The position numbers and the translations under genes were made by a program. From contig DPJQ01000217.1 in assembly GCA_003542935.1 (NCBI GenBank), forward strand, positions 1 through 35,859: a stretch of 35,859 nucleotides of DNA, given 5' to 3'. The notes under the pieces are model-generated. The model made no database searches and was not told where the DNA came from. It saw only the letters and a list, made by a program, of their open reading frames with translations. The stretch is from Lachnospiraceae bacterium (GTDB lineage Bacteria; Bacillota; Clostridia; Lachnospirales; Lachnospiraceae). Below are positions 1,614 to 21,741 of the stretch, piece by piece (the stretch's first letter is position 1; each line of letters begins with the position of its first letter).

Positions 1614-1677
1614 AATAACCGTTCTTGCGGAATCCGCATTTTTGGCGTATTCTGGAACAGAACGGTTATTTTTTTGA
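1614..1677 (+). terminator. Putative rho-independent terminator after the URO-D family gene
   Basis: 12-bp perfect stem AATAACCGTTCT (1614-1625) / AGAACGGTTATT (1659-1670) followed by a T7 run. The loop is long (33 nt) and holds a small GCGG-AAT-CCGC hairpin plus T5. Confidence 0.45.
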
Positions 1678-1708
1678 GATTTGGCAGGAACGGATAGAAG
1701 ATATTGCG

Positions 1709-3442
1709 ATGGCTGCGGCATTATGGAACGAAAAGTTTTACAAAACAAAACAGGAGAAGGAAAAACTGCGGATTGCCGTGGAACTGTGTCTGCATGACGT
1801 GAGTGAAAAACCGGCTGCGCCGGATATAGAGCGTTATCTCAGATTGCGTCAGCGTCCGGCTGCGGAGTTTCTGATACGGCAGGGAGATCTGGCGGGAATG
1901 CGTAAACTGGTATCTTATTCCTGGTTTGAGAGAAAATATCTCCCGGACTATCTGCGGATGGCCCAGGAGACAGGCCGGACGGAGCTGGTGGCGGAGCTGC
2001 TGCGGGAATGGTATGGAATGTGCAAAGTGAAAGGCAAAGCAGGGAGTGGGCGGGAGTGTTCCGGTGGAGGGGAGGACCGTGGAAAAGAAAAAAGAATTGC
2101 CGGGCCCGGCTGCGGTACGGCAGATGAGGGGGCAGAAAGGTTTTCCCAGGAAAACAGAATCGTGGAAAACGGACAGAAGAGAGGCGATCCGGGGCGTACG
2201 GCCCGGGAGATCGTGCAGCTGACGATCCAGAGCCTGATGCAGCGTTTCCCGTTTCTCGGAGGTGCGCTGCTGGCACTGGAACCCGTGCAGACGGACAGAG
2301 AGCTGCCGGAGCAGATGCGGACGGCAGGAGAGTCGGAAGGAAAAGAAAATGCAGGGCAGGATGCGGCGGACGAAACGGATAAGATGCCGGCTGCATTTGG
2401 CACGGACGGTGAGAAATTGTATTATGAGCCCCGGACAGTCTGCTGTCTCTTTCAACAGGGGCCCCATATTCTGGAACATCTGGCGCTGCACAGTCTGTTT
2501 CACTGTCTGCTCTGCCATATATTTTTGCCCTGTGGGGACGGAGACAGAGAGGGGGCGGATCGGGCGGCGGACGAAATGGTAGATGAACAGCTTGGCCGTA
2601 TGATGGAGAGAGTGGAGATGATCCGTGACTGCCATGATTTCTGGCCGTCACGCCGGGAAAACTGTACGGGGGCCGATCCGGGACAGATGGAACTTTTGCG
2701 CCGTCGGTGGAAACATCTGGCGGCCGGAGAGGGCAGCGGCGGCATGGGCCCGGTACACGGGAAAAACAGCGGCGGACTGTATCAGGATTACGGATGCAGG
2801 AAACGAAAAGCCTATGACTACCGCCGTTTTCTGGAGCGGTTTATGGTGCGCCGGGAAGAACGGATGCTGGATATGGAGAATTTTGATCCGATATGGTATC
2901 ATTACAGCCGCAGCCGATATGAAGGGCTGGTACTTTTGGAGCCTTTGGAAACCAGGGAGGTGACCCGGCTGGAGGAGATTCTGATCGCTATTGATACTTC
3001 AGCTTCCTGTTCCGGAGAGGTGGTGGAGCGGTTCCTTGATGAAACTTTTGCAATTCTGGAGCGTCAGGAACATTTTTTTCACAGGATGAATGTCCATATC
3101 GTCCAGTGCGACTGTATGATTCAGGATCATGTGCGGATCACCTGCGAGCGGGAGTGGCGGGAGTACCGGGAACATCTGAAGATCCGGGGCCTGGGCGATA
3201 CGGATTTTACGCCGGTCTTTGCCCTGGCCGGGGGGCTGGAGCGTGCCGGACAGATCAGGGAACTGAAAGGGATTTTGTATTTCACCGACGGGGACGGCAT
3301 CTTTCCCCGAAAAGCGCCGCCCTGGCCCTCGGCATTTGTGTTTTTAAATCATGAATTAGAGAAACATGAGCTGCCGGACTGGGCGATACGGCTGAATCTG
3401 GAGGAAGGCTGGGAATATGGATTATCGGAAAGAAAACGGTAG
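1709..3442 (+). CDS. VWA domain protein with N-terminal DUF2201-type (putative metallopeptidase-like) domain
   Basis: The C-terminus has an intact MIDAS-type VWA motif set (IAIDTSASCSG = DxSxS, GLGDTDFTP, ILYFTDGDG). The middle part has the DUF2201_N-like pattern (RFPFLGGALLAL...FGTDGEKLYYEP...LALHSLFHCLLCH). I chose the ATG at 1709 because the TTG at 1625 lies inside the upstream terminator hairpin. Confidence 0.7.
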   Translation: MAAALWNEKFYKTKQEKEKLRIAVELCLHDVSEKPAAPDIERYLRLRQRPAAEFLIRQGDLAGMRKLVSYSWFERKYLPDYLRMAQETGRTELVAELLREWYGMCKVKGKAGSGRECSGGGEDRGKEKRIAGPGCGTADEGAERFSQENRIVENGQKRGDPGRTAREIVQLTIQSLMQRFPFLGGALLALEPVQTDRELPEQMRTAGESEGKENAGQDAADETDKMPAAFGTDGEKLYYEPRTVCCLFQQGPHILEHLALHSLFHCLLCHIFLPCGDGDREGADRAADEMVDEQLGRMMERVEMIRDCHDFWPSRRENCTGADPGQMELLRRRWKHLAAGEGSGGMGPVHGKNSGGLYQDYGCRKRKAYDYRRFLERFMVRREERMLDMENFDPIWYHYSRSRYEGLVLLEPLETREVTRLEEILIAIDTSASCSGEVVERFLDETFAILERQEHFFHRMNVHIVQCDCMIQDHVRITCEREWREYREHLKIRGLGDTDFTPVFALAGGLERAGQIRELKGILYFTDGDGIFPRKAPPWPSAFVFLNHELEKHELPDWAIRLNLEEGWEYGLSERKR

Positions 3443-3492
3443 ATATTGATCAAAAACGGCGTACAGGTTATTTCAAGGACGGATTACTATAT

Positions 3493-5007
3493 ATGAATAT
3501 ACAACAGGCAAAAGAAGAAATTATACACACAATCCACGCTTACACGGCAAAGGACGAGGCGGGTAATTACCGGATACCGCCCCTGCGCCAGCGGCCCATC
3601 CTGCTGATCGGCCCTCCGGGGGTGGGAAAGACAGCCGTCGTGGAGCAGGCTGCGGCGGAGTGTGGGATCGGCCTTGTGGCTTACACGATCACTCACCATA
3701 CCCGCCAGAGCGCCGTGGGGCTGCCGGTGATCAGCCATAAGATCTGGCAGGGCCGGGAGTATACGGTGACTGAGTACACCATGAGCGAGATTATAGGATC
3801 TGTCTATGAGACGATGGAGCAGACAGGATGTCGGGAGGGGATCCTGTTTATCGATGAGATCAACTGTGTCTCCGAGACACTGATGCCGACCATGCTGCAG
3901 CTTCTCCAGGCCAAACGTTTCGGAGAATACCGGGTGCCCGCCGGATGGGTCATTGTGACGGCAGGGAATCCCAGGGAGTATAACGCCTCTGTCCATGAGT
4001 TTGATATGGTGACGCTGGATCGGGTGAAAAAGATTACCGTGGAGGCGGATTACGACGCCTGGCTGTCCTATGCCTGCGGCCATGATATTCACGGTTCTAT
4101 TCTGTTCTATCTGGACGGAAACCGTGGGAATTTTTATCATATCAGCGGGAGTGGAGAAAACAGGCAGTTTTTGACAGCCCGGGGCTGGGAGGATCTCTCG
4201 GTGGTAATCCGGGAATATGAGCGGGAGGATATTCCCGTGACTCCGGGGCTCATCGAACAGTATCTACAGTGCCCTGAGATTGCCGCGGATTATTTTGGCT
4301 GGTATCAGCTGTACGGCAGATGCGGTGAGAAGCTGCGTCTGAAAGAGTCCTGGGAAGGGCGGCTTAATCGAAAAGAGCGGGAGGCACAAAAGGAGGCTGT
4401 CCGGCTGTCCGGCTGGGAAGAGCGTCTCTGTGTCAGCCGTTATTTTACTGAAAAGCTGACGGGGATGCTGGAGGAATCGGAGAGGGAGGAGGCATTGTGC
4501 CGCGAAACAGAAAGGTTATGGCAGCGTTTCCTGGGACAGGTATCGGAGATGAACGGTATCCCGGAACAGTTCCGCGGCTGGCTCAGGAAGGAAAATCATG
4601 CCCTTGAGATTAAGAGTGAGCAGGGGCTTGTGGATGAGGGGGAGGAGAGGGGAACCAGACAGGCATTGTATGTGCTCCGCGCTCTTTACCTGGAACTGGC
4701 CGGGCGGCAGGAGGGAACCGGGGAAGAGTGGGAGGCCCGTGCCGCCGTCTGGCTGCAGAAACGGCAGAATGATCATCGGGAGCGGGATCGGGAGCGGCAG
4801 GAAAAACTGTCGGATACGCTCCGGAGCCTGTCGGATACTCTGGGAACGGGGACGGAATTTGTCAGCCTTTTGTCGGCCATGGCGGTCAATCAGGACTGTG
4901 TACGTTTTCTGATCCGGCATCCCTGCAGCGTTTTTGCCGGATATGCCTCCCTTCTGCAAGTGGATGACCGGCGCAGACGTTTGCAGCAGGTTTTTGAGAA
5001 GGATTGA
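3493..5007 (+). CDS. MoxR-like AAA+ ATPase (AAA_5 type) with a long C-terminal charged/coiled extension
   Basis: Walker A LLIGPPGVGKT, Walker B GILFIDEINC and sensor region VIVTAGNP. Adjacency to a VWA protein is the classic MoxR-VWA pairing. About 270 aa of E/R-rich C-terminal sequence follow the ATPase core. Confidence 0.8.
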   Translation: MNIQQAKEEIIHTIHAYTAKDEAGNYRIPPLRQRPILLIGPPGVGKTAVVEQAAAECGIGLVAYTITHHTRQSAVGLPVISHKIWQGREYTVTEYTMSEIIGSVYETMEQTGCREGILFIDEINCVSETLMPTMLQLLQAKRFGEYRVPAGWVIVTAGNPREYNASVHEFDMVTLDRVKKITVEADYDAWLSYACGHDIHGSILFYLDGNRGNFYHISGSGENRQFLTARGWEDLSVVIREYEREDIPVTPGLIEQYLQCPEIAADYFGWYQLYGRCGEKLRLKESWEGRLNRKEREAQKEAVRLSGWEERLCVSRYFTEKLTGMLEESEREEALCRETERLWQRFLGQVSEMNGIPEQFRGWLRKENHALEIKSEQGLVDEGEERGTRQALYVLRALYLELAGRQEGTGEEWEARAAVWLQKRQNDHRERDRERQEKLSDTLRSLSDTLGTGTEFVSLLSAMAVNQDCVRFLIRHPCSVFAGYASLLQVDDRRRRLQQVFEKD

Positions 5008-9388: not shown

Positions 9389-10186
9389 ATGTTTAAGACG
9401 AGACTGATAAGCGGGATCGTGCTGGTGGCGGTAGCCCTGCTCACGGTCTGCACAGGGCATCTGGTGCTTTTTATGACGCTGCTGGGGGTGTCCGTGATCG
9501 GTATGCAGGAGCTGTATAAGGCGATGAAAGTGAGGGAGGAGCGCTTTAACGGCCTGGAGCTGGCCGGCTACGCCGGAGTGACCGGATACTATCTGGTGAT
9601 CGGTACGGCGGGGCAGTATGCCTTGATGGAACTGATCGCCGTACTGGTGCTGCTGATGTGCGTGTATGTATTTTCCTATCCCAGATACAGGGTAGAGCAG
9701 GTCATGGCAGCCATGTTCGGCGTGATTTATGTTGGTGTGATGCTGTCCTTTATCTATCAGACCAGGAGCCTGTACGGTGGAGAATACCATGTGTGGCTGA
9801 TTTTTCTGTCTTCCTGGGGGTGCGATACCTGTGCGTACTGCGTGGGTATGCTGATCGGTAAACATAAAATGGCGCCTGTTCTAAGCCCCAAAAAATCCGT
9901 TGAGGGAGCCGTGGGCGGCGTGGCGGGAGCGGCGGTTTTGGGCGCTGTTTATGCCGCGGCCACGGGCAGTATTCCCATGGTCTATGCACTGATTTGCGGT
10001 GTGGGGGCACTGATCTCCATGGTAGGGGATCTGGCTGCCTCGGCGATCAAGAGAAACCAGGGGATCAAGGATTACGGGACGCTGATCCCCGGACACGGGG
10101 GGATACTGGATCGTTTCGACAGTGTGATCTTTACGGCCCCGGCGATTTATTTCCTGTGTGCACTGCTGATTGCCCAGAAATTTTAA
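9389..10186 (+). CDS. cdsA: Phosphatidate cytidylyltransferase
   Basis: Polytopic membrane protein with the C-terminal signature SAIKRNQGIKDYGTLIPGHGGILDRFDS. Synteny uppS-cdsA-dxr. Confidence 0.9.
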   Translation: MFKTRLISGIVLVAVALLTVCTGHLVLFMTLLGVSVIGMQELYKAMKVREERFNGLELAGYAGVTGYYLVIGTAGQYALMELIAVLVLLMCVYVFSYPRYRVEQVMAAMFGVIYVGVMLSFIYQTRSLYGGEYHVWLIFLSSWGCDTCAYCVGMLIGKHKMAPVLSPKKSVEGAVGGVAGAAVLGAVYAAATGSIPMVYALICGVGALISMVGDLAASAIKRNQGIKDYGTLIPGHGGILDRFDSVIFTAPAIYFLCALLIAQKF

Positions 10187-11440: not shown

Positions 11441-12723
11441 GTATTCTATTAGCATTGCTGATATTCAGCGTTTTAGTATTGTTCCACGAGTTTGGGCATT
11501 TTCTTTTTGCAAAGCTGAACCATATCACGGTACTGGAGTTTTCCCTGGGGATGGGGCCGAAGCTGTTTAGCTTTGAGAAGGGGGGCACGCTGTATTGTTT
11601 AAAGATTCTTCCTTTCGGCGGCTCCTGCATGATGCAGGGCGAAGACGGCGAGGACGAATCGGAGGGCTCTTTTAACGCAGCGCCGGTCTGGGGCCGGATC
11701 TCTGTGGTGGCGGCCGGACCGGTCTTTAACTTTATTCTGGCCTTTCTTTTTGCCATGATGGTGGTGGGGATCTCCGGTTTTGACCGGCCCACGGTTACGG
11801 GGGTGGAAGAGGGATCTGCTGTGGAGGCTGCCGGATTGCGGGCCGGTGATCAAATCACTAAATTTGACGGTTACGGTGTGTCGCTGGGCCGGGATCTCTA
11901 TATGTATATGAATCTGGTGGGCGTGTCGGATGGTCAGGTGCAGGTGGAGTATCTCCGCGACGGTGTGAAACAATCCCTGTCCTATGTGCCGGACAGTGAA
12001 GAACGCTATATGTTGGGCTTCAATTATTATGCGGATGACCAGGAGCCTCTGATCGCGTCGGTGAGCCTGGGCGGAGCCATGGCCGAGGCGGGAGTAAAGT
12101 CCGGGGACGTCATTCTGGAGCTGGACGGTACGGTGATAAATACCGGTGCAGAACTGGAAAAATATATGGCGGATCACCCTATGGACGGCAGTGTGATCCA
12201 TATGGTCTATAAGCAGGGGAATAAAATAAAGGAAGCGGACGTGACCCCTTCGGTGCAGAAGGCTGTCAATATCGGATTCAGCTATAATATGGCCTATGAG
12301 AAGGTGGGGGCTCTGGGTATATTCCGACATGGTTTTGAGGAAGTCAAATACTGGGTCAAGACAACGGTTTTAAGTTTACGGATGCTGGTGACAGGAAAGG
12401 TGGGCATCAATGACATGTCCGGTCCGGTGGGTATTGTAAGCACCATCGGCGATACCTATGAGCAGAGTAAGTCCTATGGGGCGGCCGTGACGCTGGCCAG
12501 TATGCTGGAACTGGTGATCCTGTTGTCCGCCAATCTGGGTGTCATGAACCTGCTGCCCATTCCCGCTCTCGACGGGGGCCGTCTGATCTTTTTGTTGGTG
12601 GAGGCCATACGCCGCAAGCCGGTGAACCGGGAGCTGGAGGGGAAGATCCATTTTGCAGGATTTGCGCTTCTGATGCTTTTGATCGTGTATGTGAGTGTAC
12701 ATGATATTGTGAAATTGTTTTGA
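11437..12723 (+). CDS. rseP: RIP metalloprotease RseP/RasP (site-2 protease, M50 family)
   Basis: HEFGHFLFAK (HExxH) in the first TM helix, PDZ-like middle region, C-terminal NLLPIPALDGG. The TTG start overlaps the dxr stop (ATTGA) and has GAAGGAGG upstream. Confidence 0.9.
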   Translation: MSILLALLIFSVLVLFHEFGHFLFAKLNHITVLEFSLGMGPKLFSFEKGGTLYCLKILPFGGSCMMQGEDGEDESEGSFNAAPVWGRISVVAAGPVFNFILAFLFAMMVVGISGFDRPTVTGVEEGSAVEAAGLRAGDQITKFDGYGVSLGRDLYMYMNLVGVSDGQVQVEYLRDGVKQSLSYVPDSEERYMLGFNYYADDQEPLIASVSLGGAMAEAGVKSGDVILELDGTVINTGAELEKYMADHPMDGSVIHMVYKQGNKIKEADVTPSVQKAVNIGFSYNMAYEKVGALGIFRHGFEEVKYWVKTTVLSLRMLVTGKVGINDMSGPVGIVSTIGDTYEQSKSYGAAVTLASMLELVILLSANLGVMNLLPIPALDGGRLIFLLVEAIRRKPVNRELEGKIHFAGFALLMLLIVYVSVHDIVKLF

Positions 12724-12831
12724 GGTCATAGGTAAGGAAAGAACGTGTCTGGAAATTGTGGGAATGGATTTTCAGGCACGTTTCGGTTTATTTCTGTGGG
12801 ATATGTTATAGAAAAACGGAAGGAGCATTTT

Positions 12832-13614
12832 ATGGACGAGCAGCAGATTTTCAGAGAACGTCTGGCATCCATCGGCGCTTTTGCGGAGGAAAAGCAAGGA
12901 GTGCTGACGGAACAGGAGATCCGCAATTATTTTGGGGGCATCACGCTGGCCGATGAGCAGTGGGATATGGTGTACCGTTATCTGGAGACTTTAAAAATTC
13001 GTATTGCGGGACGAAAAGAAACATCGGATTTTATACTGATGCCGGAGACGTCCTCCGCCGGGGACGAGGCCGCATCCGGGGAGGACGGGGACGGGGCAGA
13101 CGATGTGCTGGAACTGTATCTGGAGGATATGAGGCAGGTGGCCCCGGCGGTCCCCGGTGAGGAGGAAGCTCTGGTGGAGGCAGCCGCGGCGGGAAAGGAT
13201 ACCGCGGTCAAACGGCTGGCGGAGCTGTATCTGTACCATGTGATTGCCATTGCCAGGGAATACGCCGGGAAGGGCAGCCTGCCTGTGGGGGATCTGATCC
13301 AGGAAGGAAATGTGGGCCTGCTCACCGGTATTTCCATGCTGGCAGACCGGTCGGCGGACACTTCCCCCGCGGATTACCTGATCGGCTCTATCAGAGAGGC
13401 CATGGAGCTGTATATCCTGGAACTGGGGGATCAGAGTAATATCGGAAAACGGGTGGAGGAAAAAGTGAATCATCTCCATCAGGCTATACAGGAGCTGGAA
13501 TGTGATCTGGAGCGTAAGGTCACAAAGGAGGAAGTTTCAGCTTTTCTGAACATGCCTCTTTCCGAGATCGAGGATCTTTTGCGCATGGCCGGGGATGGAT
13601 TGGAGCTGGAATAA
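12832..13614 (+). CDS. Sigma-70 (RpoD-like) paralog truncated after region 3.1; no region 3.2 or region 4
   Basis: 260 aa from the ATG at 12832 (GGAAGGAG RBS). It aligns by eye to RpoD regions 1.1-like, acidic linker, 1.2 (DVLELYLEDMRQV), 2.1-2.2 (LYHVIAIAREYAGKG...DLIQEGNVGLL) and 3.0-3.1 (...KVNHLHQAIQELECDLERKVTKEEVSAFLNMPLSEIEDLLRMA). The ORF stops where region 3.2 would begin. Confidence 0.6.
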   Translation: MDEQQIFRERLASIGAFAEEKQGVLTEQEIRNYFGGITLADEQWDMVYRYLETLKIRIAGRKETSDFILMPETSSAGDEAASGEDGDGADDVLELYLEDMRQVAPAVPGEEEALVEAAAAGKDTAVKRLAELYLYHVIAIAREYAGKGSLPVGDLIQEGNVGLLTGISMLADRSADTSPADYLIGSIREAMELYILELGDQSNIGKRVEEKVNHLHQAIQELECDLERKVTKEEVSAFLNMPLSEIEDLLRMAGDGLELE

Positions 13615-13621
13615 ACTATGT

Positions 13622-13652
13622 TAGCGGAGCTGGCCTTTCAGGTCAGCTCCGC
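13622..13652. terminator. Hairpin between the convergent sigma-like gene and the sleC 3' fragment (possible bidirectional terminator)
   Basis: AGCGGAGCTG / CAGCTCCGCT 10-bp perfect stem with an 11-nt loop. It overlaps the last sleC codons. There is no strong T-tract. Confidence 0.35.
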
Positions 13653-14225
13653 TATTCTTGTCACGCCCACATAGATATCCTGGATCCGGTACCAGGTGGG
13701 ATAGTCCACGATACCGGTCTGCGGCAGCCCGAAGACTCGCTGGAAGGTGCGCACAGCATTCTGCGTACCCTCTCCGTAGATACCGTCCACAGATACGGCG
13801 GGAATGGCAGGATAGCCTCTGCGGATGGCGTTGAGCTGTTCCTGCAACTGGCGCACTTTTGCACCTGTGGCGCCAATATTCAGGTCATAGCCCGGCCAGG
13901 AGGAGGGGATGCCGGAGATCTCTTCGGCGGTGTTGATGTACATGTTTTCGCCGTAGTAGTAGCGCAGGATTTGGATGGCGGAGTAGTTTCGGTCGCCGAG
14001 GTATTTGGAACCCCACTGGCTCATCCAGTTCGGGCAGGTCACTCGCTCTCCGTCACAATATTGTGTGAGAATGGGCTGCTTTATGTTTGGCCGGGACAGA
14101 TAGTTGCCGAACAACTCATCGACGATCTGACTCACATTCGTAAATAGATTCCGGCCGTTGATCCATTTGTGGTCGTAGGCAGTGGATGAGGTGATTGTAA
14201 AATCATAGCCCTTGTTTCGATACCA
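13638..14225 (-). pseudogene. sleC: SleC-type spore cortex-lytic enzyme, C-terminal half of a split gene (ORF-track ORF 13638..14306)
   Basis: From W at 14225..14223 the translation reads W-YRNKGYDFTITSSTAYDHKW...TQYCDGERVTCPNWMSQWGS...ILRYYYGENMYI..., then a PG_binding_1 repeat (VRQLQEQLNAIRRGYPAIPAVSVDGIYGEGTQNAVRTFQRVFGLPQTGIVDYPTWYRI). The 27 codons upstream of W belong to the inserted element. Confidence 0.75.
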
Positions 14226-15927
14226 TTTTGTAAGCAGGATTTCGGAAGGGCAGACGATCCAGGCAGATCCGTGAATGAATGTGGATATTTTCATTGCATA
14301 TATCAATTCGCGAAATCAGCCGGTTAACGACAGCACATTTTTCCGCAACAGAGCTGTCCATAAAGGCTTTCGGCCATGGTGGCAGATCGGTAATATGTCC
14401 CGTTGGGCTTTTCTCTGCAGGAAGATTTCCGGTCGAATCCGGATAAGTATTGCAGTCCATTGTTTCGTGTGCAAATTCTTTCATGATATTGTTCAAGTGC
14501 TCTCTTTTTTCCTTGGCTTTGTGGATGAGTTCTGACAGATGTTCAGAGGAAAAAGAAATTTCTCCCCGCAGCGCTTTGGGAATCGATTCTTCCAGTATCT
14601 CAATATCCCTCTGTAAAGATTTTATCCGGGTTGCCAGCGCTTTTTTCTTTTCAGAAATGATTTTCTTCCGACTGCAGTTTTCTTCTGCCAGTTTGTCAGA
14701 CAGAAATGTATTATCCTGGATGGCGGTCAGACAGTCTGTGACAAAGGCGAATATTCCGGTTTCCAGATCGTCGGCACGATAAAGAGCTTTTCCCTGGCAG
14801 AGTCCTCCCTGGTGTTTTGTCGGACAGCGGTAGCAGCCCACCCGGCTGCGATGCTTTATTCCGTCTTTTGTAGTCCAGTAATTATATTTGCTGCCGTTGA
14901 TCATTTTTCGTCCGCAGCTGCCGCAGTACAAAATATCCAACAGGGGAAGAGCCCGACCGGTGCCGGTGGAAACCGCGGACGCGTTCTTTTTCTGCGGAGT
15001 GACGGCATTTCTGCGCATTTCACGGAGTTCCTGCACTCTGTTCCAGAGAGCGGGGTCGATGATCCGGATATTCGGGTCACATTTTTCCGAGAGAATCCAT
15101 TTCGTGTGATCCAACGTGATAAAATGTCCATCGACCCGTGTGCGCCTGTTATATGCCAGATAGCCGGTGTAGATGGGATTGCGCAGAATATCCCGGACAG
15201 TTCCGGATTTCCAGGCGATGCCGTTGGGAGACAGAAGCCTCAGCCGTTCATCTTCGTTCAGCAGAGATGTGATTTTGGAGTAGCCATATCCGCAGGAGCC
15301 GGCGAGATTGTACATATAACGGACAATTTCGGCCCGTTCCGGGTCGATGACTTTCTTTTTCAGTGCCCTCTGATGTTTGCTGAACTCGCCGGAAAAAACC
15401 AGATGGTAGCCGTAAGGAGCTTTTCCGCCCTGATTTTTCCCAAGGCGTACATTTTCCCTGGCGGTATCTTTGACCCGCTGAGAAGTGTCCCGGCTGGCGC
15501 CTTCCGCATGCCAGTAGCGTATGAAATTGATCAGGGAATCCGTGTGGTTCTGCGGTGTGATGCAGCCGTCCTTTACGGTAAAAATCAGGACACCGAAGGA
15601 CGCCAGTTTTTTGATATACTGGGGAATCTCATCTTCCCGCCGTCCCAGCCGGTCATCCTTGTAGCAGACCAGAATTTGAAATTCTCTGTTTTCTGCGTCA
15701 GCCAGGATATCCTGAAGTGCCTGACGATTCTTTACGGAATTTTTGTAACCGGAAACACCGCCTTCATAATATTCCGGTTTGACGGTGTCCAGCATCCATT
15801 CTCTGTGTTTTGCTATGTACGCCGTCACAATGTTTCGCTGGACGGCCAGATCGCCGTCGGCATCCAGCTGCTGGCCGGAAGAGACCCGGAGCAGCATTCT
15901 CACGAGAAGGGGAGCATTTATCTCCAA
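14203..15927 (-). CDS. Large serine recombinase (resolvase N-domain + recombinase domain + zinc ribbon + coiled coil)
   Basis: 574 aa. N-terminus LLRVSSGQQ...DILADAENREFQILVCYKDDRLGRRE is a resolvase catalytic domain with the RVSS serine. APYGY...recombinase domain, Cys cluster CGSCGRKM...CYRCPTKHQGGLC, then a coiled-coil region. TTG start at 15927 with GAGGAGGG 6 nt upstream. The last 7 codons and stop lie beyond the element boundary. Confidence 0.9.
   Translation of the reverse strand: MEINAPLLVRMLLRVSSGQQLDADGDLAVQRNIVTAYIAKHREWMLDTVKPEYYEGGVSGYKNSVKNRQALQDILADAENREFQILVCYKDDRLGRREDEIPQYIKKLASFGVLIFTVKDGCITPQNHTDSLINFIRYWHAEGASRDTSQRVKDTARENVRLGKNQGGKAPYGYHLVFSGEFSKHQRALKKKVIDPERAEIVRYMYNLAGSCGYGYSKITSLLNEDERLRLLSPNGIAWKSGTVRDILRNPIYTGYLAYNRRTRVDGHFITLDHTKWILSEKCDPNIRIIDPALWNRVQELREMRRNAVTPQKKNASAVSTGTGRALPLLDILYCGSCGRKMINGSKYNYWTTKDGIKHRSRVGCYRCPTKHQGGLCQGKALYRADDLETGIFAFVTDCLTAIQDNTFLSDKLAEENCSRKKIISEKKKALATRIKSLQRDIEILEESIPKALRGEISFSSEHLSELIHKAKEKREHLNNIMKEFAHETMDCNTYPDSTGNLPAEKSPTGHITDLPPWPKAFMDSSVAEKCAVVNRLISRIDICNENIHIHSRICLDRLPFRNPAYKMVSKQGL
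14222..14225. repeat. Left copy of the 4-bp junction core (ACCA on plus strand, TGGT on coding strand)
   Basis: This is the only sequence shared by the two sleC/element junctions. The second copy is at 21002-21005. Confidence 0.6.
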
Positions 15928-16076
15928 TGGATACCCTCCTCTGTCTTTCTTAATTGGCCTAAAATCAAAAATGTCATCAGCTCTTTCAGGTCATCCACTG
16001 TTCCGGTATCGTCATCCCCGGAGTCGGAGAGGGTGATTTTCCACGCGTCTTCTGTATAGAAGGCAGTTTTGCCCAT
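15918..16076 (-). CDS. Small acidic ORF (52 aa) translationally coupled to the recombinase; candidate directionality factor
   Basis: Below the ORF-track size cutoff, so translated by hand: MGKTAFYTEDAWKITLSDSGDDDTGTVDDLKELMTFLILGQLRKTEEGIHWR. GGAGG sits 6 nt upstream of the ATG at 16076. Its TAA (15920..15918) overlaps the recombinase TTG start by 10 nt. Confidence 0.35.
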   Translation of the reverse strand: MGKTAFYTEDAWKITLSDSGDDDTGTVDDLKELMTFLILGQLRKTEEGIHWR

Positions 16077-16182
16077 GGTATTCCTCCATACGTCATCTCT
16101 CTTCAGTTTTATGCCGTTCGTTCTTGTCCCTATGCATGATATTTTTGTGTGATTTCAGGCAGAGATCGGATTGCGGCGGAGC

Positions 16183-17520
16183 TTATCGCGTCAGTTTTTT
16201 TGCCCAATGACCGAAATTGCATTTTAGAAATGCCGGCACACACTTAAAAATCTGGTCTGCATTGAGACAGCACACGACTACGACGGGGGATGCTTTCACC
16301 CAAAAGGCCATTATAAAAGATATGGGAATGACGATTCCCCAGATACTGATCAAATCCATCTTCATCACATATTTTGTGTCACCGCCTCCTCGGACAATGC
16401 CGATGTTGGTGGGCATCTGGTAGGACATGCCCACACAGATCACGGACAGAATGACAAGAAAAGTGTTTGCCATAGACATGGTTTCCGGTTCCAGTCTGTA
16501 GAGGGAGAGAACGGGTATCCGCAGGAAATACAGGCCGATTCCGGAAAGAACCCCAATCCCCACAAAGAGGGTCTGCAGCGTGCGTGCCAGGACCGTCAGC
16601 CCTTTTTCATTGCCTTCACCAATGGTTTTGCCGACAAAGAAAGACGCAGCGGAAGCGGAGCCCATACCGGTGGATTTTACCATTAGAAATAAAGTGGATG
16701 CCACACTGTTTGCCGCGATGGCACGGTCGGTCATATGGCCGAGAATGGCATTTTGTGTGGCACTGTTCAGTCCCCACAGGCTGCTGGCCAAAAGCAGGGG
16801 CAGCATAATACGGAAATAATCCCTGCGAAGCACCGTATCCGTACGGAAATAATCCCGCAGATGTATATCTTTCTTCCGTATGTATATATAGAAAATCAGA
16901 ACCAGGAGTTCGGCGATGCGGGCCGTAAGCGTTCCGATGGCAGCGCCCGTCACTCCCAGGCGCGGGGCACCGAAATGTCCGTATATCAGTGTATAATTGA
17001 TACCGCAGTTGATCAGCAGTGTGCATACGGATAATATAAGGGCAATGTGCACGATCCCCATGCTCCGTAATACGGCCAGCAGAAGCTGTGTGATGGCAAA
17101 AAACAGATAGGTATATCGGATGATCCGAACGTATTCCGCCCCCTGGTCTATGATAGCCGGATCCGCCACGAACAGCCCCAGGAGCTGTCGCGGAAACAAA
17201 CTTACAGCGAAAAAAAGCAGTGCAGCCGTTACCAGGGCCGTATGCATACCGATGGAAGAGAGTATCCGGATGGGCTCCATCTGTTTTTTACCGTAATACT
17301 GTGTGGCCAGGACAACGGCGCCTTCGCCAATGGCCGTAATGAGCTGTTGGTACACAAATTGTATCTGATTAGCTGCCGCTACACCGGACAGAGATACTTC
17401 GCTGTAAGCTCCCAGCATAATATTATCCGCCAGATTGACACTGAGCGTAATGATATTTTGCAGCACCAAAATTATCCACATTGAAAAAAATGATTTATAG
17501 AATGTCTTGTTTTTTATCAT
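16183..17520 (-). CDS. MATE family efflux transporter
   Basis: 445 aa, 12-TM-like hydrophobic profile. N-terminus ...FFSMWIILVLQNIITLSVNLADNIMLGAYSEVSLSGVAAANQI... is typical of MatE repeats. Confidence 0.85.
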   Translation of the reverse strand: MIKNKTFYKSFFSMWIILVLQNIITLSVNLADNIMLGAYSEVSLSGVAAANQIQFVYQQLITAIGEGAVVLATQYYGKKQMEPIRILSSIGMHTALVTAALLFFAVSLFPRQLLGLFVADPAIIDQGAEYVRIIRYTYLFFAITQLLLAVLRSMGIVHIALILSVCTLLINCGINYTLIYGHFGAPRLGVTGAAIGTLTARIAELLVLIFYIYIRKKDIHLRDYFRTDTVLRRDYFRIMLPLLLASSLWGLNSATQNAILGHMTDRAIAANSVASTLFLMVKSTGMGSASAASFFVGKTIGEGNEKGLTVLARTLQTLFVGIGVLSGIGLYFLRIPVLSLYRLEPETMSMANTFLVILSVICVGMSYQMPTNIGIVRGGGDTKYVMKMDLISIWGIVIPISFIMAFWVKASPVVVVCCLNADQIFKCVPAFLKCNFGHWAKKLTR

Positions 17521-17707
17521 GGTGTTTTTCCTCTGTAATATTCAGATATGTAGAGTATACATCCAACAAATGAAGACAACAAGAATGTTTGCATACAAAA
17601 ATCGGATTTAACCATTGAAAAAAACGCAAAAGTGACAAAACTTGAAATTTTTATGCATAATTCCGGATGCCGTAGCAGCTAACAGAAGCGATTGGCGGAA
17701 AGCCGGT

Positions 17708-19240
17708 TTACCGTATCGCCTTTATCAAATAAAATGCTGTGAACCGCATATGGCCGCTTCGCAGATCGCCGCCGGTTTTCCAATCTCCGTAAGGCGTGGT
17801 TTTTCTTTTGTTGGAAGCGTAGCAGTCAAGAACCAGGTATCGGCCGTTTTTGTAATCGCCGATAGCCATGTAGTGCCCCGGTATACGCCCGACGGCGGTG
17901 CCGCCGTTTTTTAAATGATTTTTCAGAGTGGTGAGGCTGGAAGTGGACCCTGCGTAGGTAAATCCATAAGTTTTTCCGAATTTTCTGGCTGCCCCGTTGA
18001 AAAATGCCGCCGCAGTTCCCTGACCGGGGATTCGATAGCCTGCTCGTACGGAGAAGTCAGCGAGAACCATGGGATCTATATATTGCCCGTTCAGGGCATA
18101 GACCGCGTTTGTCAGGGAGAGCACGCCGCAGGCGGATGCGGCCATAGAATTTGTCTTACCGTATCCTTTGCTTCCCCAATCCGGGTCGTATTGGGAAAAT
18201 ACCTGATAATTCGTCCGGTTTTTATTGGTAGCCATGGTGAATCGAAACTGTTTTTTGCCTGATTGGTTTTGTGCACCCAGGGTAAATGTCCGGGATGCCG
18301 TCAGGTAGCCGTCTGTACCTGCGTTTTTGAGAAAAAAATAAGAACCGGATCGGGTAAGCTGCCAGATCTGTCCGGGATTAATTTCATCATTGACCCTTTC
18401 CAGTACTACCTGATTTGCGTGTCCCGCGTTTTCGGATGCTGCTGCCAAATGTATTTTTTCTTCGCTTTCAGGCGTCGCTGCAAGACATAGGCCGGTGGCG
18501 GCATGAATGATCTGATAACAGTTGTTTCCGACAAACTGAAGCTTAAATTTCTGCCGGGATGAGCTGTTTGCTTCTTTCAGGGACAGGCCCTTTGCAGAGC
18601 CCTCAATGTGTTGGTAAGGGGCGCTTTTGGGGGTCAGATAATAGGTTCCCTCTGCCAGAAGCTTCTTTTCACGGCTGTCATAATCCCAGCGGGTATAGTT
18701 GAGAACAGACTCTTTTATCCATCCGATCCGGTAATCGGACTGGCATTTGCAGATGACCTGATACCAGCTTCCTGACTTGCCAATGATTTCCATAGCCGAT
18801 AAAAAGGAGATAGTGCCGAAGGGCGAACCGGATTTTCTGCCGTATATGGTGCTCCTGCTTTTGGCCGCAGCCATTTCATGTTCATAAGCGGGTTGTCTGA
18901 CAAAGTCTTTTTCCCTGAACCAGCCGGATGTATTTCCCCGGCTGGTTTTGCAGGTTCCGTAAAACGCCTGATCCCTGTACTTTTTTAACTTTACCGTCAG
19001 AGCTTTACCCTTTACCGTACCGATTTCGGTTTTGCAGTCGGAGTTTTTGTAAATGGTAAGCTTTTCAGTGGAGAGAGGGTAAGCGGTAACTGTGTTTCCA
19101 TGGCCCATAATCTGGTATTTTGTGCCGTATGCATAAGAGGCGGCTTTGGCTTCTAAAGTCCGTTCCGGTATGCAGGCCGGGATAAAAACAAACACCAGCG
19201 CCAGCAGCATTGTCAAAAGATATTTTGCATTCTTTTTCAT
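17708..19240 (-). CDS. Secreted multidomain protein: signal peptide, SH3b-like repeats, ricin-type lectin-like region, C-terminal C39-like cysteine peptidase domain
   Basis: Start at the ATG at 19240 (AGGAGA RBS), giving MKKNAKYLLTMLLALVFVFIPA...AKA. Two SH3b-like segments (...SGWFREKDF; ...SWYQVICK...IGWIKESVL). QxW-like lectin repeats (QKFKLQFVGNNCYQIIH..., QIWQLTRSGSYFFLKNAGTDGYLTA). The C-terminus has ...SMAASACGVLSLTNAVYAL...GHYMAIGDY (Cys/His pair as in Peptidase_C39-like folds). Confidence 0.55.
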   Translation of the reverse strand: MKKNAKYLLTMLLALVFVFIPACIPERTLEAKAASYAYGTKYQIMGHGNTVTAYPLSTEKLTIYKNSDCKTEIGTVKGKALTVKLKKYRDQAFYGTCKTSRGNTSGWFREKDFVRQPAYEHEMAAAKSRSTIYGRKSGSPFGTISFLSAMEIIGKSGSWYQVICKCQSDYRIGWIKESVLNYTRWDYDSREKKLLAEGTYYLTPKSAPYQHIEGSAKGLSLKEANSSSRQKFKLQFVGNNCYQIIHAATGLCLAATPESEEKIHLAAASENAGHANQVVLERVNDEINPGQIWQLTRSGSYFFLKNAGTDGYLTASRTFTLGAQNQSGKKQFRFTMATNKNRTNYQVFSQYDPDWGSKGYGKTNSMAASACGVLSLTNAVYALNGQYIDPMVLADFSVRAGYRIPGQGTAAAFFNGAARKFGKTYGFTYAGSTSSLTTLKNHLKNGGTAVGRIPGHYMAIGDYKNGRYLVLDCYASNKRKTTPYGDWKTGGDLRSGHMRFTAFYLIKAIR

Positions 19241-19446
19241 TGGTTTCTCCTGAAAATGTATTTTTTGGGCGACAGCATATTCTGCCACATAATGTCGAAA
19301 TGATTATAACTCAAATAAGTCATATAATTCAATATATAACTCAAAGTAAAACTTGATGTTCTTGCGGTCTCAGCAGCAAGTGCTTCGACCAGTGCTGAAC
19401 AGTTAGCAAATTTTCTCTGTTTTGTAGGCGTAATATGAGTTTTATG

Positions 19447-19476
19447 TTGACATATATAATTTAAAAGAGTTATAAT
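19447..19476 (+). promoter_or_regulatory. Candidate sigma-A promoter for the 19507 gene
   Basis: TTGACA (19447-19452), 18-nt spacer, TATAAT (19471-19476), about 30 nt upstream of the start codon. Confidence 0.5.
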
Positions 19477-19506
19477 TTTGAAAAAACATCAGAAAGGAAA
19501 AGGATT

Positions 19507-20421
19507 ATGAAAAAACACAAAAAAATACACTATGATATCCTGGGTTTGATGTCTGTTTGTTTTTTGATGGGCATTTTTTTGGCAGTGCCGGTGAAAGCTG
19601 AGGCGGCCACCTTTCAAACAGGCTGGGGCAGTGATAAGATGAAAACAGGGAAATATTATGTCTGGGTGGATGATAAGTCGGATTCTGTTGTCGTTTCCAC
19701 ATCCCAATCAGGGGATGGACGGGTGATTGCAACAGCTTCCGGGAAACGTGAAATGAATGGCTCCTTTATGTCTGACGGTTCTACCGTTTTCTATGCAGAA
19801 AAGATTTATAAAGAGGACTATGCTCTTGATTATATTTATAAAATAAGTATTCAGGGGAAAAGACGTACATATATTGGCAAAATGAAGGATATGAACAATT
19901 TTGAAGCCTGCTATGGCGGAAATCTGTATGTATCCTGCTGGGATTTTCGGGAAGATTATCAGGGCGAATTCGATCCTTGCCACATTTATCGAATAAACAT
20001 AAAAACTGGAAAAACAAAATGTGTTGTAAAAAATGCAACTGTTGACAGCCAGTATAAACGGTATTTGCTCGCATCAGCGCCTACTGATGCAGCATATGCT
20101 CCGCGTAATTTCTATGTTTTTGATTGTAAAACCGAAAAAGCTGTCAGGATTGGTAAAAACATTCGATTTGCGTCTTTTTCAGCAAATAAAGTGTATTATG
20201 CGGAGGGTATCAATGATACGGCTATCCGTGTACTGAGCTGCAGTCTGTCCGGAAAAAATAAAAAGACGATTGTAAAGAAACTTACTGTAGATGGCGGCGC
20301 CGGAGTAGGGAGAATTACTTCAAAGTATGTGTATTACCTTAAAGGAGGGAAACCCCGCCGTTACAATATCAAGACAAAGAAGTCAGAAAAAATCAGTGAA
20401 AAAAAATATCTGTCCTGGTGA
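19507..20421 (+). CDS. Secreted repeat protein, DUF5050/TolB-like beta-propeller type (tentative)
   Basis: Signal peptide (...LMGIFLAVPVKAEA). Recurring blade-like motifs (VFYAEKIY..YIYKISIQGK; NLYVSCWD..IYRINIKTGK; NFYVFDCKTEK; KVYYAEG...SLSGKNKK; YVYYLKGG..YNIKTKK). AGGAAAAGGA RBS. Confidence 0.45.
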   Translation: MKKHKKIHYDILGLMSVCFLMGIFLAVPVKAEAATFQTGWGSDKMKTGKYYVWVDDKSDSVVVSTSQSGDGRVIATASGKREMNGSFMSDGSTVFYAEKIYKEDYALDYIYKISIQGKRRTYIGKMKDMNNFEACYGGNLYVSCWDFREDYQGEFDPCHIYRINIKTGKTKCVVKNATVDSQYKRYLLASAPTDAAYAPRNFYVFDCKTEKAVRIGKNIRFASFSANKVYYAEGINDTAIRVLSCSLSGKNKKTIVKKLTVDGGAGVGRITSKYVYYLKGGKPRRYNIKTKKSEKISEKKYLSW

Positions 20422-20448
20422 TACAGGAATAAAGTGTTTTGGAAAAAC

Positions 20449-20474
20449 GGCAGCGTACAGGCTGCCATTTTTTT
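20449..20474 (+). terminator. Rho-independent terminator after the 19507..20421 gene
   Basis: GGCAGC-GTACAG-GCTGCC hairpin followed by ATTTTTTT. Confidence 0.6.
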
Positions 20475-20624
20475 GCTTTTTCAGCCATTTAGATTATGTG
20501 AATATACGCAAAATACATACTCATTACAGTTATATATTAAAAAACAAAGCTCAATTATATATCTAAATTCTATTGCTAAAATTAGATAGAATAGGGGAAG
20601 ATATAACGAAAGTGAGGTGTATCC

Positions 20625-20960
20625 ATGATAGAAGATCAGGTGATTGAAAGAATTGATGCCCTGCGTCTGAAACGTCACTGGTCGTTGTACCGTCTGGCGA
20701 AAGAATCTGAGATCCCCTATTCAAACCTGAACAATATATTTAACCGTAAAACATGTCCGAGTATTCCGACTCTGGAAAAAATATGCGCTGGCCTGGGTAT
20801 GTCCCTGGCTGAGTTTTTTGATTTTCACACGCAGCCCGGGCCGGAAGATGGGCTGTCTGAGACGGAGGAAGATATCATATACGCCTTTCGCACATTGTCC
20901 CAAAGGGATAAAGAACTATTTCAGACCTATCTGAGCGCGCTGTGCCGACAGCTGCCGTAA
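20625..20960 (+). CDS. XRE-family helix-turn-helix transcriptional regulator
   Basis: 111 aa. ...LRLKRHWSLYRLAKESEIPYSNLNNIFNRKTCPSIPTLEKICAGLGMSLAEFF is a typical HTH_3/Cro-C1 domain. GAGGTG RBS. Confidence 0.8.
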   Translation: MIEDQVIERIDALRLKRHWSLYRLAKESEIPYSNLNNIFNRKTCPSIPTLEKICAGLGMSLAEFFDFHTQPGPEDGLSETEEDIIYAFRTLSQRDKELFQTYLSALCRQLP

Positions 20961-21001
20961 ATAATTAAATTTTTTTATCCTGAATGCCCGGTTACAAATG
21001 C

Positions 21002-21005
21002 ACCA
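21002..21005. repeat. Right copy of the 4-bp junction core (ACCA on plus strand)
   Basis: Identical to 14222-14225. It sits at the point where SleC-type sequence ends (codon W at 21005..21003). Confidence 0.6.
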
Positions 21006-21686
21006 CTCTGTATAGACACGGTTTAACGTAAAGGACATGATAGCCAGCACATTAGCCCGTATGGTGCTGTCCGGCCAGGTGGAGTAGATTTCGCTGCAGG
21101 CCACATTTTTTATATAGTCCCTGTATCGCACATAATAATTTGCGGCGGTGCTGTCTGACGGCACGCCGTCATGTACCACCACATATTCCGGTACCACGAC
21201 CCGGCTTAAAACGATCTCCCCGCTATCATCTACAGGCTTCACTTCGTCTTCAGGAATCTTTTCCGGGTAATCCCCAAACAGGGTATGGGCGGGAATTACG
21301 ATTCTCTCAAAATCCTCGCCTTCCGTCAGCGGTATCATCCGTATGGGCTGGATGCTGGTCTCGTTAGCCAGAAGTTCTGAGCCGCTTACATTGACGGATT
21401 CAAAACCCGGCACATCTACATGGATATTGTATTCCGAATAAGGCTGATATTCCGACGGCTCCAAACTGTATTCAAGGGGGGGCGTCATCAGCTCCACGGC
21501 CTCCGTCTGACCGGATTCATCGGTGGTCAGTTCTTCGATCACCTGATCCGGTTCTCCGGTGTAGGAGATGGATACTTTTGCCCCTTCCAGAGGTGTGTTT
21601 TCCAGCATGGATGTTACATCCACCCGGAGTCTTCCCCGGTCTGCGTTTTCCGTCTGCATTGCTCTCCAAAAACTTTTTTCCTGCAT
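21003..21686 (-). pseudogene. sleC: SleC-type spore cortex-lytic enzyme, N-terminal half of a split gene (ORF-track ORF 20916..21686)
   Basis: ATG at 21686 with AGGAG RBS. The 228 aa end in ...VVVPEYVVVHDGVPSDSTAANYYVRYRDYIKNVACSEIYSTWPDSTIRANVLAIMSFTLNRVYTEW. After W the frame runs 26 unrelated codons into the element (CICNRAFRIKKFNYL...) to a stop at 20916. Confidence 0.75.
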
Positions 21687-21714: not shown

Positions 21715-21741
21715 TATTTTATGAATGAAAAGAAAAGATGT
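21715..21741 (-). promoter_or_regulatory. Candidate sigma-K-type (mother-cell) promoter upstream of sleC
   Basis: The minus strand reads AC-N16-CATAAAATA (AC = 21741..21740; CATAAAATA = 21723..21715). This matches the B. subtilis sigma-K consensus AC-16/17-CATAnnnTA. It lies 27 nt upstream of the ATG, leaving room for the AGGAG RBS. Confidence 0.3.

Follow-up and report, generated by a model that had tools for sequence, protein, structure and literature searches.

Gene-intervening elements of sporulating bacteria have been described in sigK (skin), spoVFB (vfbin), spoVR (vrin), spsM (SPbeta), gerE (gin) and yabG (yin) (PMC4191935, PMC5595907, PMC5025042, PMC10747680). Those shown by experiment in these papers concern six target genes, nearly all in Bacillus or pathogenic clostridia. 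In Bacillus subtilis, excision of skin from sigK by SpoIVCA, and of SPbeta from spsM by SprA with SprB, takes place in the mother cell and restores the gene, while the spore keeps the element (PMC4191935, PMC5499854). Two further elements come closest to the case presented here. Nearest in style is gin, which splits the mother-cell gene gerE of Bacillus cereus ATCC 10987, is not a phage and encodes the recombinase GirC together with the directionality factor GirX (PMC5595907). The skinCd element in sigK of Clostridioides difficile, perhaps the closest in regulation, has a clostridial host and encodes the recombinase CD1231 and a small acidic factor, CD1234, without database homologues (PMC5025042). 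Here we analyse a stretch of 35,859 nucleotides from a Lachnospiraceae bacterium (GenBank assembly GCA_003542935.1, contig DPJQ01000217.1; hereafter the window), in which sleC, the gene of a germination enzyme, is split by a 6.78-kb insert carrying a large serine recombinase gene. The insert is best explained as a site-specific integrative element of a large, horizontally mobile family of gut Lachnospiraceae that targets the codons for TEW|YRN in sleC, and reading the locus from its sequence we consider it probable that excision in the mother cell restores sleC in a skin- or gin-like manner. A full-text literature search gave no report of an element in sleC, in agreement with the preliminary description of this DNA, which was aware of none; a survey of sporulation genes in Firmicutes likewise describes SleC and skin elements, and no sleC elements.

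The split sleC gene and its intervening element

Two minus-strand open reading frames (ORFs) flank the insert. The first (20916..21686) encodes the N-terminal half of SleC up to NRVYTEW and continues through 28 unrelated codons, while the second (13638..14306) opens with 27 unrelated codons, then resumes as W-YRNKGYDF... and ends in a peptidoglycan-binding domain. Deletion of 14223..21002, which joins 21003 to 14222 and removes 6,780 bp, produces an in-frame protein of 422 amino acids with the motif NRVYTEWYRNKGYDF. Aligned to the solved pre-pro-form of SleC (PDB 9h68_A), the joined protein matches over residues 17-421 (E=2e-133) with no gap between TEW and YRN, reading NRVYTEWYRNKGYDFTITS across the junction where the solved protein has NRVFTEWYRNKGYNFTITS. 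The match is full-length and takes in the N-terminal pre-pro region, the catalytic domain and the C-terminal PG_binding_1 domain; Pfam places the latter at residues 347-407 of the joined protein and gives a weak SpoIID match straddling the join. The split of sleC is thus confirmed as real and not an artefact. Most of what the preliminary description had stated about the gene holds: both ORFs lie where it had put them, the 27 leading codons and the terminal PG_binding_1 domain are present, and the joined product is colinear with clostridial SleC from end to end. Its count of 26 unrelated codons behind TEW was two short. The join that it had given as exact is indeed in frame, 6,780 bp long in its deletion and 422 residues in its product, with the crossover itself ambiguous within TGGT.

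An uninterrupted allele of 422 amino acids, for which the same description had advised searching, is found on a Logan contig (allele P0001 on contig L001). It is 96% identical to the joined sleC at the amino acid level and 86% at the nucleotide level, and its synteny is that of the window: H+-PPase (H+-pyrophosphatase), sleC, a sigma-like gene, an M50 protease gene, dxr and cdsA. Between the window sleC and this intact allele, the ratio of nonsynonymous to synonymous divergence (dN/dS) is 0.022 in each half at a synonymous divergence (dS) of about 1, along a path that covers the time preceding the insertion as well.

The insert differs from its surroundings in base composition: its G+C content is 45.9%, whereas sleC and the two flanks have 53%. 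Its ends carry the attachment (att) sites attL and attR, whose element-side arms are inverted partners, 15 of 24 positions being symmetric about GT in the reconstructed attP. The reconstructed window sites read ...GTCTATACAGAGTGGTATCGAAACAAGGGC... for attB and ...CTGCTTACAAAATGGTGCATTTGTAACCGGG... for attP, and the two have TGGT in common. From the symmetry of attP the crossover would fall at GT, whose G closes the Trp codon and whose T opens the Tyr codon (tgG-Tat), the placement of the crossover within TGGT being ambiguous from sequence. As reconstructed, this layout corresponds to the standard site architecture of serine integrases.

Pfam and NCBIfam searches show no recombination gene in the insert besides that of the serine recombinase, which abuts a junction, as already described. 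The recombinase scores above the cutoffs of PF00239, PF07508 and PF13408 and matches the PHROG 95 integrase family at E=8e-72, and R14, S16 and Q20 of the catalytic motif RVSSxxQ are invariant in an alignment of 33 members of the recombinase family. Across the family its dN/dS ranges from 0.03 to 0.27, which indicates purifying selection. The best match among solved structures is a distant one to SprA (E=1e-7). Among NCBIfam models the best match is XisF (NF041201), and orthology to XisF was rejected since the score of 94.3 bits is far under the cutoff of 375. A phage origin of the element was also considered and discarded, given that PHROG matches comprise the integrase and helix-turn-helix (HTH) regulators only, with no structural genes. 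The recombinase ORF overruns the junction by 19 nt, so that DNA of the sleC 3' half supplies its last six codons and stop. Because the gene spans attR, its C-terminal tail differs between the two states, ending in ...YKMVSKQGL when integrated and, by prediction, in ...YKMVHL in the circle. Going by its title, a 2021 study by Abe and colleagues, cited in PMC10747680, proposed that the far C-terminal end of SprA affects directionality, and a tail that depends on the state of the element might therefore matter.

In sleC orientation the insert runs attL, HTH regulator, 304-residue protein, ricin-lectin protein, MATE transporter, regulatory block, 52-residue ORF, recombinase and attR (table 1), with the HTH and 304-residue genes on the strand opposite to sleC. 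The ricin-lectin cargo protein found no relative among solved structures.

Table 1. Positions of the split gene, the element and its parts in the window.
Feature	Position	Strand	Details
sigmaK-type promoter-like site	21715..21741	-	ACATCTTTTCTTTTCATTCATAAAATA; AC-N17-CATAnnnTA, upstream of sleC
sleC 5' half	21003..21686	-	codons 1-228, last residues ...NRVYTEW
attL	20977..21028	-	sleC arm, GT core at 21003/21002, element arm TGCATTTGTAACCGGGCATTCAGGATAAAA
Intervening element	14223..21002		6,780 bp, 45.9% G+C
XRE/Cro-C1-type HTH regulator (cargo)	20625..20960	+	111 aa; Pfam HTH_3 E=2e-10; PHROG transcriptional repressor families
304-aa protein (cargo)	19507..20421	+	hydrophobic N-terminal segment; no family match
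526-aa protein (cargo)	17708..19288	-	hydrophobic N-terminal segment; ricin-type lectin domain, Pfam RicinB_lectin_2 E=1e-6
MATE-family efflux transporter (cargo)	16183..17520	-	445 aa; Pfam MatE E=5e-43; TIGR00797 184 bits, cutoff 147
Conserved regulatory block	16105..16135	-	31 nt; GCATAGG-GACAAG-N10-CATAAAAC
Small acidic protein	15918..16076	-	52 aa; 3' end overlaps recombinase start codon
Large serine recombinase	14203..15927	-	574 aa; Pfam Resolvase, Recombinase, Zn_ribbon_recom; overlaps attR
attR	14197..14248	-	element arm ...CCGAAATCCTGCTTACAAAATG, GT core at 14223/14222, sleC arm ATCGAAACAAGGGC...
sleC 3' half	13638..14222	-	codons 229-422, YRNKGYDF... to PG_binding_1 domain and stop

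Beside sleC, on the plus strand (12745..13614), lies an ORF of 289 amino acids whose sole match is sigma-70 region 3 (E=3e-6). Its counterpart in L001 was called at 260 amino acids, and this atypical sigma-like protein is kept beside sleC in the lineage. Distant from the element and apparently unrelated to it, a DUF2201 (VWA-like) gene adjoins an AAA_5 ATPase gene (1625..5007, plus strand). No csp locus was found within the window.

A family of elements inserted in sleC

One genome per GTDB species was scanned with the alignment of 33 recombinase relatives as query, which gave 172 confirmed stretches; all loci counts below refer to the best 80 of these 172. The recombinases recovered are 40-60% identical to that of the window. 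Judged by their labels, the hosts are mostly of Lachnospiraceae type (among them Blautia, Dorea, Sellimonas, Faecalimonas, Acetatifactor, Petralouisia, Jingyaoa, Hominisplanchenecus and Mediterraneibacter), the exceptions being a few generically labelled records and one metagenome-assembled genome (MAG) labelled Bacteroidales (L043). Cultured carriers include Jingyaoa shaoxingensis NSJ-46 (L083), Sellimonas caecigallum JCM 35759 (L024), Blautia ammoniilytica (L057), Hominisplanchenecus murintestinalis DSM 111139 (L064), Petralouisia muris (L006) and Lachnospiraceae bacterium JLR.KK009 (L022). A tblastn search with the joined SleC found, in 77 of these 80 loci, a sleC fragment whose break falls at residue 228/229. 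Of the others, two stop at a contig edge and one (L026) is a recombinase copy away from sleC. The junction always follows the TEW codons, in the loci examined as well as in further contigs from Logan, ENA and JGI. The preliminary description had suggested looking for the element at other sites; what recurs is a set of related elements at the same codon, with L026 as the copy elsewhere. With sleC split at one and the same codon in at least 77 other Lachnospiraceae genomes, a skin-like family is the most likely explanation.

In 67 of 73 classified loci the sleC fragment directly adjoins the recombinase module, in one of three layouts. The recombinase 3' end lies at the 3'-half junction on the same strand as sleC in 41 loci, as in the window, and at the 5'-half junction on the opposite strand in 24, so that 65 of the 73 have the recombinase next to an att site; in two loci the module directly follows the 5' half on the same strand. 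Among the 23 loci containing both sleC halves, element length ranges from 2,115 to 9,666 bp and the joined sleC ORF is intact in 21. The smallest element (L056, 2.1 kb) consists of a small ORF and the recombinase and nothing else. Reconstructed attP sites across the family are imperfect palindromes with GT at the centre, and in some other subfamilies they are near-perfect, for example GGTGATTCCGG-CGTA-CCGGAACCACC.

The integrated form appears to prevail. Two recombinase variants account for 234 and 129 blocks in a public assembly index, and in all 14 distinct places listed for these variants the sleC 3' fragment directly follows the recombinase, which makes integration the standing state in many gut samples. 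Short Logan contigs with the closest recombinases (P0122, P0132) were considered as possible circles and rejected, being integrated copies that run on into sleC. Contigs very often end inside the element, with the distance from the recombinase upstream to the contig end lying between a few hundred and 2,500 bp (e.g., L006, L008, L009, L016, L020, L032, L039, L040, L068, L071). Such ends would be expected if assemblies break where a genome has several copies of the element, or where integrated and excised forms are mixed. The copy away from sleC (L026, 9983..11752) comprises recombinase, small ORF and upstream block. It comes from the same MAG as L028, a genome that also has a copy inserted in sleC, and can be read as marking another target site or as a copy in transit.

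Cargo varies from element to element: HepT with MNT in L018 and L013, PhdYeFM with ParE in L096-L105, DUF4160 in L074, CheC with CheD in L030, and in L094 a Tn916-type Xis with a tyrosine integrase, one variant thus containing a second, tyrosine-integrase element nested within it. Toxin-antitoxin cargo is frequent and would penalise element loss from dividing cells. Some loci show a second break in sleC. The 5' half of L041 is split at about residue 167 by an insert of some 5 kb with another serine recombinase (11716..17400), and the second junction of L050, aaatgg followed by TATTTGCGTATC, resembles an att half-site of the family. Second breaks (L041, L050, L065, L084) could reflect nested elements or decay.

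By profile search, the window and 75 of the 80 related loci have a homologous small ORF directly upstream of the recombinase and on the same strand. The encoded proteins have a median length of 57 amino acids (a class of about 55) and follow the pattern (G)-hKhxLEFP...-EhKxIL-xxLxExL, where h is hydrophobic. Their dN/dS of 0.07-0.54 indicates purifying selection on the small ORF. No Pfam or PHROG family matches them, and a word search of 5.8 billion proteins combined with phmmer against 1.84 billion representatives returned, for the window protein, the query and a single relative of 49% identity. A single-sequence structure model gave one helix at low confidence (predicted local distance difference test, pLDDT, 66). 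By position, size and conservation we take the small protein as a candidate recombination directionality factor. The factors CD1234, SprB and GirX are likewise small and without family (PMC5025042, PMC5595907).

A conserved block, with the consensus cGAATg.GACAAGCt-N7-AATA...TAA, precedes the small ORF by some 55-60 nt. Of 76 loci, 38 have the strict motif at a fixed distance from the small ORF (-54 to -63), whereas the rate elsewhere in the same loci predicts 0.0018 occurrences per 130 nt; variants occur in further loci, the window included. The GACAAGC core fits the box of SpoIIID (examples are TGTAACAAG, TGTGACAAG and TACGACAAG). For B. subtilis SpoIIID, a consensus of WWRRACAR-Y was reportedly given by Halberg and Kroos in 1994. 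The C. difficile consensus is KRTAACARK (PMC5025042). The GMATR and MATA boxes of the block are 16 nt apart, the spacing of sigmaE promoters, and no sigma-70-type site is predicted at the block. A sigma-70 reading with a GTGACA-type -35 is less likely, for no -10 box follows at a distance of 16-18 nt. Few loci matched strict patterns for sigmaK and sigmaE upstream of the small ORF, the block having sigmaE spacing and a weak -10. We tentatively read the block as a -35/-10 pair of sporulation-sigma type with a SpoIIID-like box, the sigma assignment being tentative because GMATR also fits sigmaG and the -10 box is weak.

In C. difficile, expression of sleC depends on sigmaK, and germination requires the gene (PMC3789822, PMC5025042). 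Of 50 loci, 33 have a sigmaK-type pattern (AC-N16-17-CATAnnnTA) ahead of sleC, whereas the background frequency is 1.9% of 100-nt windows; in most of these 33 it stands 39-78 nt upstream of the gene. Together with the corresponding site in the window, this agrees with the C. difficile experiments, and sleC of the window organism would be expressed in the mother cell, as the preliminary description had supposed. In L079 (7850..8079) and in L083 (Jingyaoa shaoxingensis NSJ-46, 9696..10001) 37 nt separate the sleC 5' half from the start of the small ORF, which follows it on the same strand; with the module so placed, the sigmaK-type promoter of sleC would itself drive the excision module.

The elements are also mobile. 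Recombinases and element ends are 99-100% identical among L063, L064 and L066 (mouse-gut species), between L005 and L010 and between L007 and L008, while the SleC 5' halves of the hosts share only 64-67% identity or their sleC genes have a dS above 1.6. In L063/L064, for example, recombinases are 99.8% identical (dS 0.012) and SleC 5' halves 67% identical, and in L007/L008 dS is 0.05 for the recombinase against 1.9 for sleC. On these sequence comparisons, such identities imply recent inter-genus transfer of elements of the 3-kb class without transfer genes.

Proposed excision in the mother cell and its alternatives

We put forward the following sequence of events. As long as cells grow, and later in the forespore, integration would persist and sleC would be split. 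During sporulation the mother cell would switch on the operon of small protein and recombinase at the element edge, from the conserved sporulation-type promoter with its SpoIIID-like box or, in some relatives, from the sigmaK-type promoter of sleC. The small protein, as directionality factor, would then steer the recombinase to excision by recombining attL with attR at the GT core, freeing a 6.78-kb circle and rebuilding an intact sleC of 422 codons. Transcribed from its own sigmaK-type promoter, the rebuilt gene would supply pro-SleC for deposition in the spore, whose chromosome would retain the element.

Two pairs of loci bear on selection on the split gene. In L028/L069 dS is 0.60 for the element and 0.76 for sleC, with a dN/dS of 0.036 for the split sleC. 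The corresponding dS values in L079/L083 are 0.064 and 0.04-0.24, and the split sleC, with 33 synonymous differences and one nonsynonymous, has a dN/dS of about 0.02. The similar dS of element and sleC in these two pairs is consistent with an insertion predating the lineage split, and across both the split sleC has kept a dN/dS of 0.00-0.05.

Several observations weigh against restoration in the mother cell. Recombinase and SleC identities across loci are uncorrelated (Spearman rho 0.006 and 0.06), and in most pairs dS of the recombinase is far under that of sleC. Co-divergence as proof of ancient domestication was rejected on these grounds; with the two divergences uncoupled, the elements must move horizontally and many insertions must be recent, so that intact halves alone prove little. 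The 3' half is cut again or truncated near residues 295-305 in L050 (~11918), L065 (~11915) and L084 (~2700), possibly through decay, and L084 is the closest relative of the window element. A protein database search did not find a reconstituted SleC identical to the window join. The attP pattern of the TAACTTCGTAT subfamily occurred neither in JGI metagenome contigs nor in IMG/VR, a null result without power given that the control, integrated attL, gave only six copies in the metagenomes and none in IMG/VR. The published descriptions of cultured carriers that were consulted do not report spores. The small protein shows no detected similarity to known directionality factors. Lastly, the GMATR of the block fits the forespore sigmaG/F consensus too, and its -10 often begins with A, not C.

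Excision might also be precise and yet not tied to the mother cell, either as a reversible germination switch akin to active lysogeny (cf. the Listeria comK prophage) or as a step that serves mainly for transfer and answers to other signals. Frequent horizontal transfer calls for excision and integration outside the terminal cell line, or for release of the element, and the excised form of yin in Clostridium botulinum was present at all time points (PMC10747680). The window's XRE-type repressor could gate such excision, and the sigma-factor reading of the block is ambiguous; the block nevertheless has no sigma-70-type -10 box at the proper spacing, and its GACAAGC box fits SpoIIID, a mother-cell regulator. 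In L079 and L083, moreover, the module sits after the sigmaK-type promoter of sleC. A non-replicating circle would be lost in growing cells, a loss that the toxin-antitoxin cargo suggests is penalised, and every one of the 14 listed places of the two widespread variants is integrated. On balance we judge excision uncoupled from the mother cell to be unlikely, if worth keeping in view.

In another scenario, which the preliminary description had set beside the skin-like one, the insertion plainly inactivates sleC: the element would be selfish and sleC-targeting, in a host that does not depend on germination or has another cortex-lytic enzyme, with no regulated restoration. The intact halves may then be pieces of a young pseudogene, as horizontal elements mostly younger than the divergence of their hosts would allow, and the further damage to 3' halves in three loci (L050, L065, L084), the lack of an excision product in the attP search with its six integrated copies, and the toxin-antitoxin cargo of many elements, typical of selfish ones, all point in this direction. 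Plain inactivation does not, however, account well for the intact joins in 21 of 23 loci, for the low dN/dS of sleC where the element appears as old as the lineage split, or for the sigmaK-type sleC promoter that carriers keep. Nor does it explain why a directionality-factor-like gene (75/80) and a sporulation-type block (strict form in 38/76) are maintained beside the recombinase, or why the two widespread variants stand integrated in 14 of 14 listed places. A recombinase family specialised on a single mother-cell gene is, besides, the hallmark of known excising elements. Occupancy of the same codon, intact joins, the conserved module and block, the sigmaK-type promoter and low dN/dS all favour the skin-like element, and we find plain inactivation doubtful.

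The sigmaG -35 consensus is reportedly GHATR, according to a 1995 review by Haldenwang. Forespore-directed excision, in which GMATR-N16-MATA is a sigmaF/G-type promoter and sleC is permanently repaired in the progeny, would suit the -35-like GAATG, GAATA, GCATA and GCATG and those -10-like boxes (AATACTA, CATAAAA) that resemble CATXHTA, and is nonetheless very improbable. The spacing is 16 nt, while sigmaG sites have 17-18 nt, and the block overlaps a SpoIIID-like box, which belongs to the mother cell. With sleC behind a sigmaK-type promoter, forespore repair would give that spore no enzyme, and removal from the germline in each generation sits poorly with an element found integrated in many samples.

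Mother-cell excision can be carried further, to a self-timed two-gene switch on which the germination competence of the spore depends. Excision would then be a source of non-germinating or superdormant spores, lysis of the mother cell would release circles, and sleC would be a harbour with several sites. Some lineages would have wired the module directly behind the sigmaK-type promoter of sleC, circle release would explain the inter-genus spread of 2-3-kb elements without transfer genes, and the several sites would be those of the second insertions at residues ~167 and ~295-305. This extension is speculative and we hold it to be improbable as a whole.

Significance and comparison with known systems

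If mother-cell excision of the sleC element is true, a germination gene joins the targets of intervening elements, one whose product, a cortex-lytic enzyme, is essential for germination in C. difficile, and the phenomenon extends to dominant spore-forming commensals of the mammalian gut, where single recombinase variants recur in more than 100 public assemblies. Should excision efficiency limit the supply of SleC, the elements could affect spore germination and transmission of these commensals. Carrier genomes annotate sleC as two unrelated fragments, "peptidoglycan-binding" and hypothetical, and surveys of sporulation and germination genes could therefore misread carriers as having lost sleC. 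The family further offers dozens of diverged compact sets of recombinase, att sites and candidate factor, the smallest of 2.1 kb, for which a single attB motif is known; they would be useful in studies of directionality control and as genome-engineering tools.

Among known systems, the heterocyst fdxN element of Anabaena and its recombinase XisF resemble what we propose for the sleC elements in a developmental excision by a large serine recombinase in a terminally differentiating cell, in another phylum, however, and another developmental programme, and with a recombinase to which that of the sleC elements is not orthologous. The yin element in yabG of C. botulinum V73 is clostridial, excises as a circle and interrupts a gene of the SleC maturation pathway, YabG being the protein that processes pre-pro-SleC (PMC10747680). 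It is, in contrast, prophage-like and known from one strain, whereas sleC elements occur in at least 77 species-level genomes. Skin and SPbeta of B. subtilis, of 48 kb and 134 kb, are prophages or prophage remnants, while the sleC family measures 2-10 kb and has no phage genes.

Similarity to skinCd goes beyond host and gene content. The interrupted gene is again mother-cell-specific, and the CD1234 gene has a sigmaE promoter and a SpoIIID box (PMC5025042), comparable to what we tentatively read upstream of the small ORF. In skinCd, however, the recombinase is constitutive and the factor alone is under sporulation control, whereas the sleC elements apparently have both genes in one operon behind the block. 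The targets differ as well: that of skinCd is a sigma factor and SleC is a structural germination enzyme, so that no regulatory cascade depends on its restoration.

With gin, the sleC elements have in common an attP that is an imperfect inverted repeat around a short core, and near-identical copies across strains by a transfer route that is unknown for gin (PMC5595907). The gin element is nevertheless 28.6 kb long with three recombinase genes, against a minimum in the sleC family of 2.1 kb with one recombinase and one small ORF. Its target is gerE and its excision has been demonstrated in vivo and in vitro, whereas the sleC elements have a germination target, belong to anaerobic gut Lachnospiraceae and are only inferred to excise. 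The sleC family thus adds to an already known kind of element a germination enzyme as target, a breadth of at least 77 species-level genomes and an unusual compactness.

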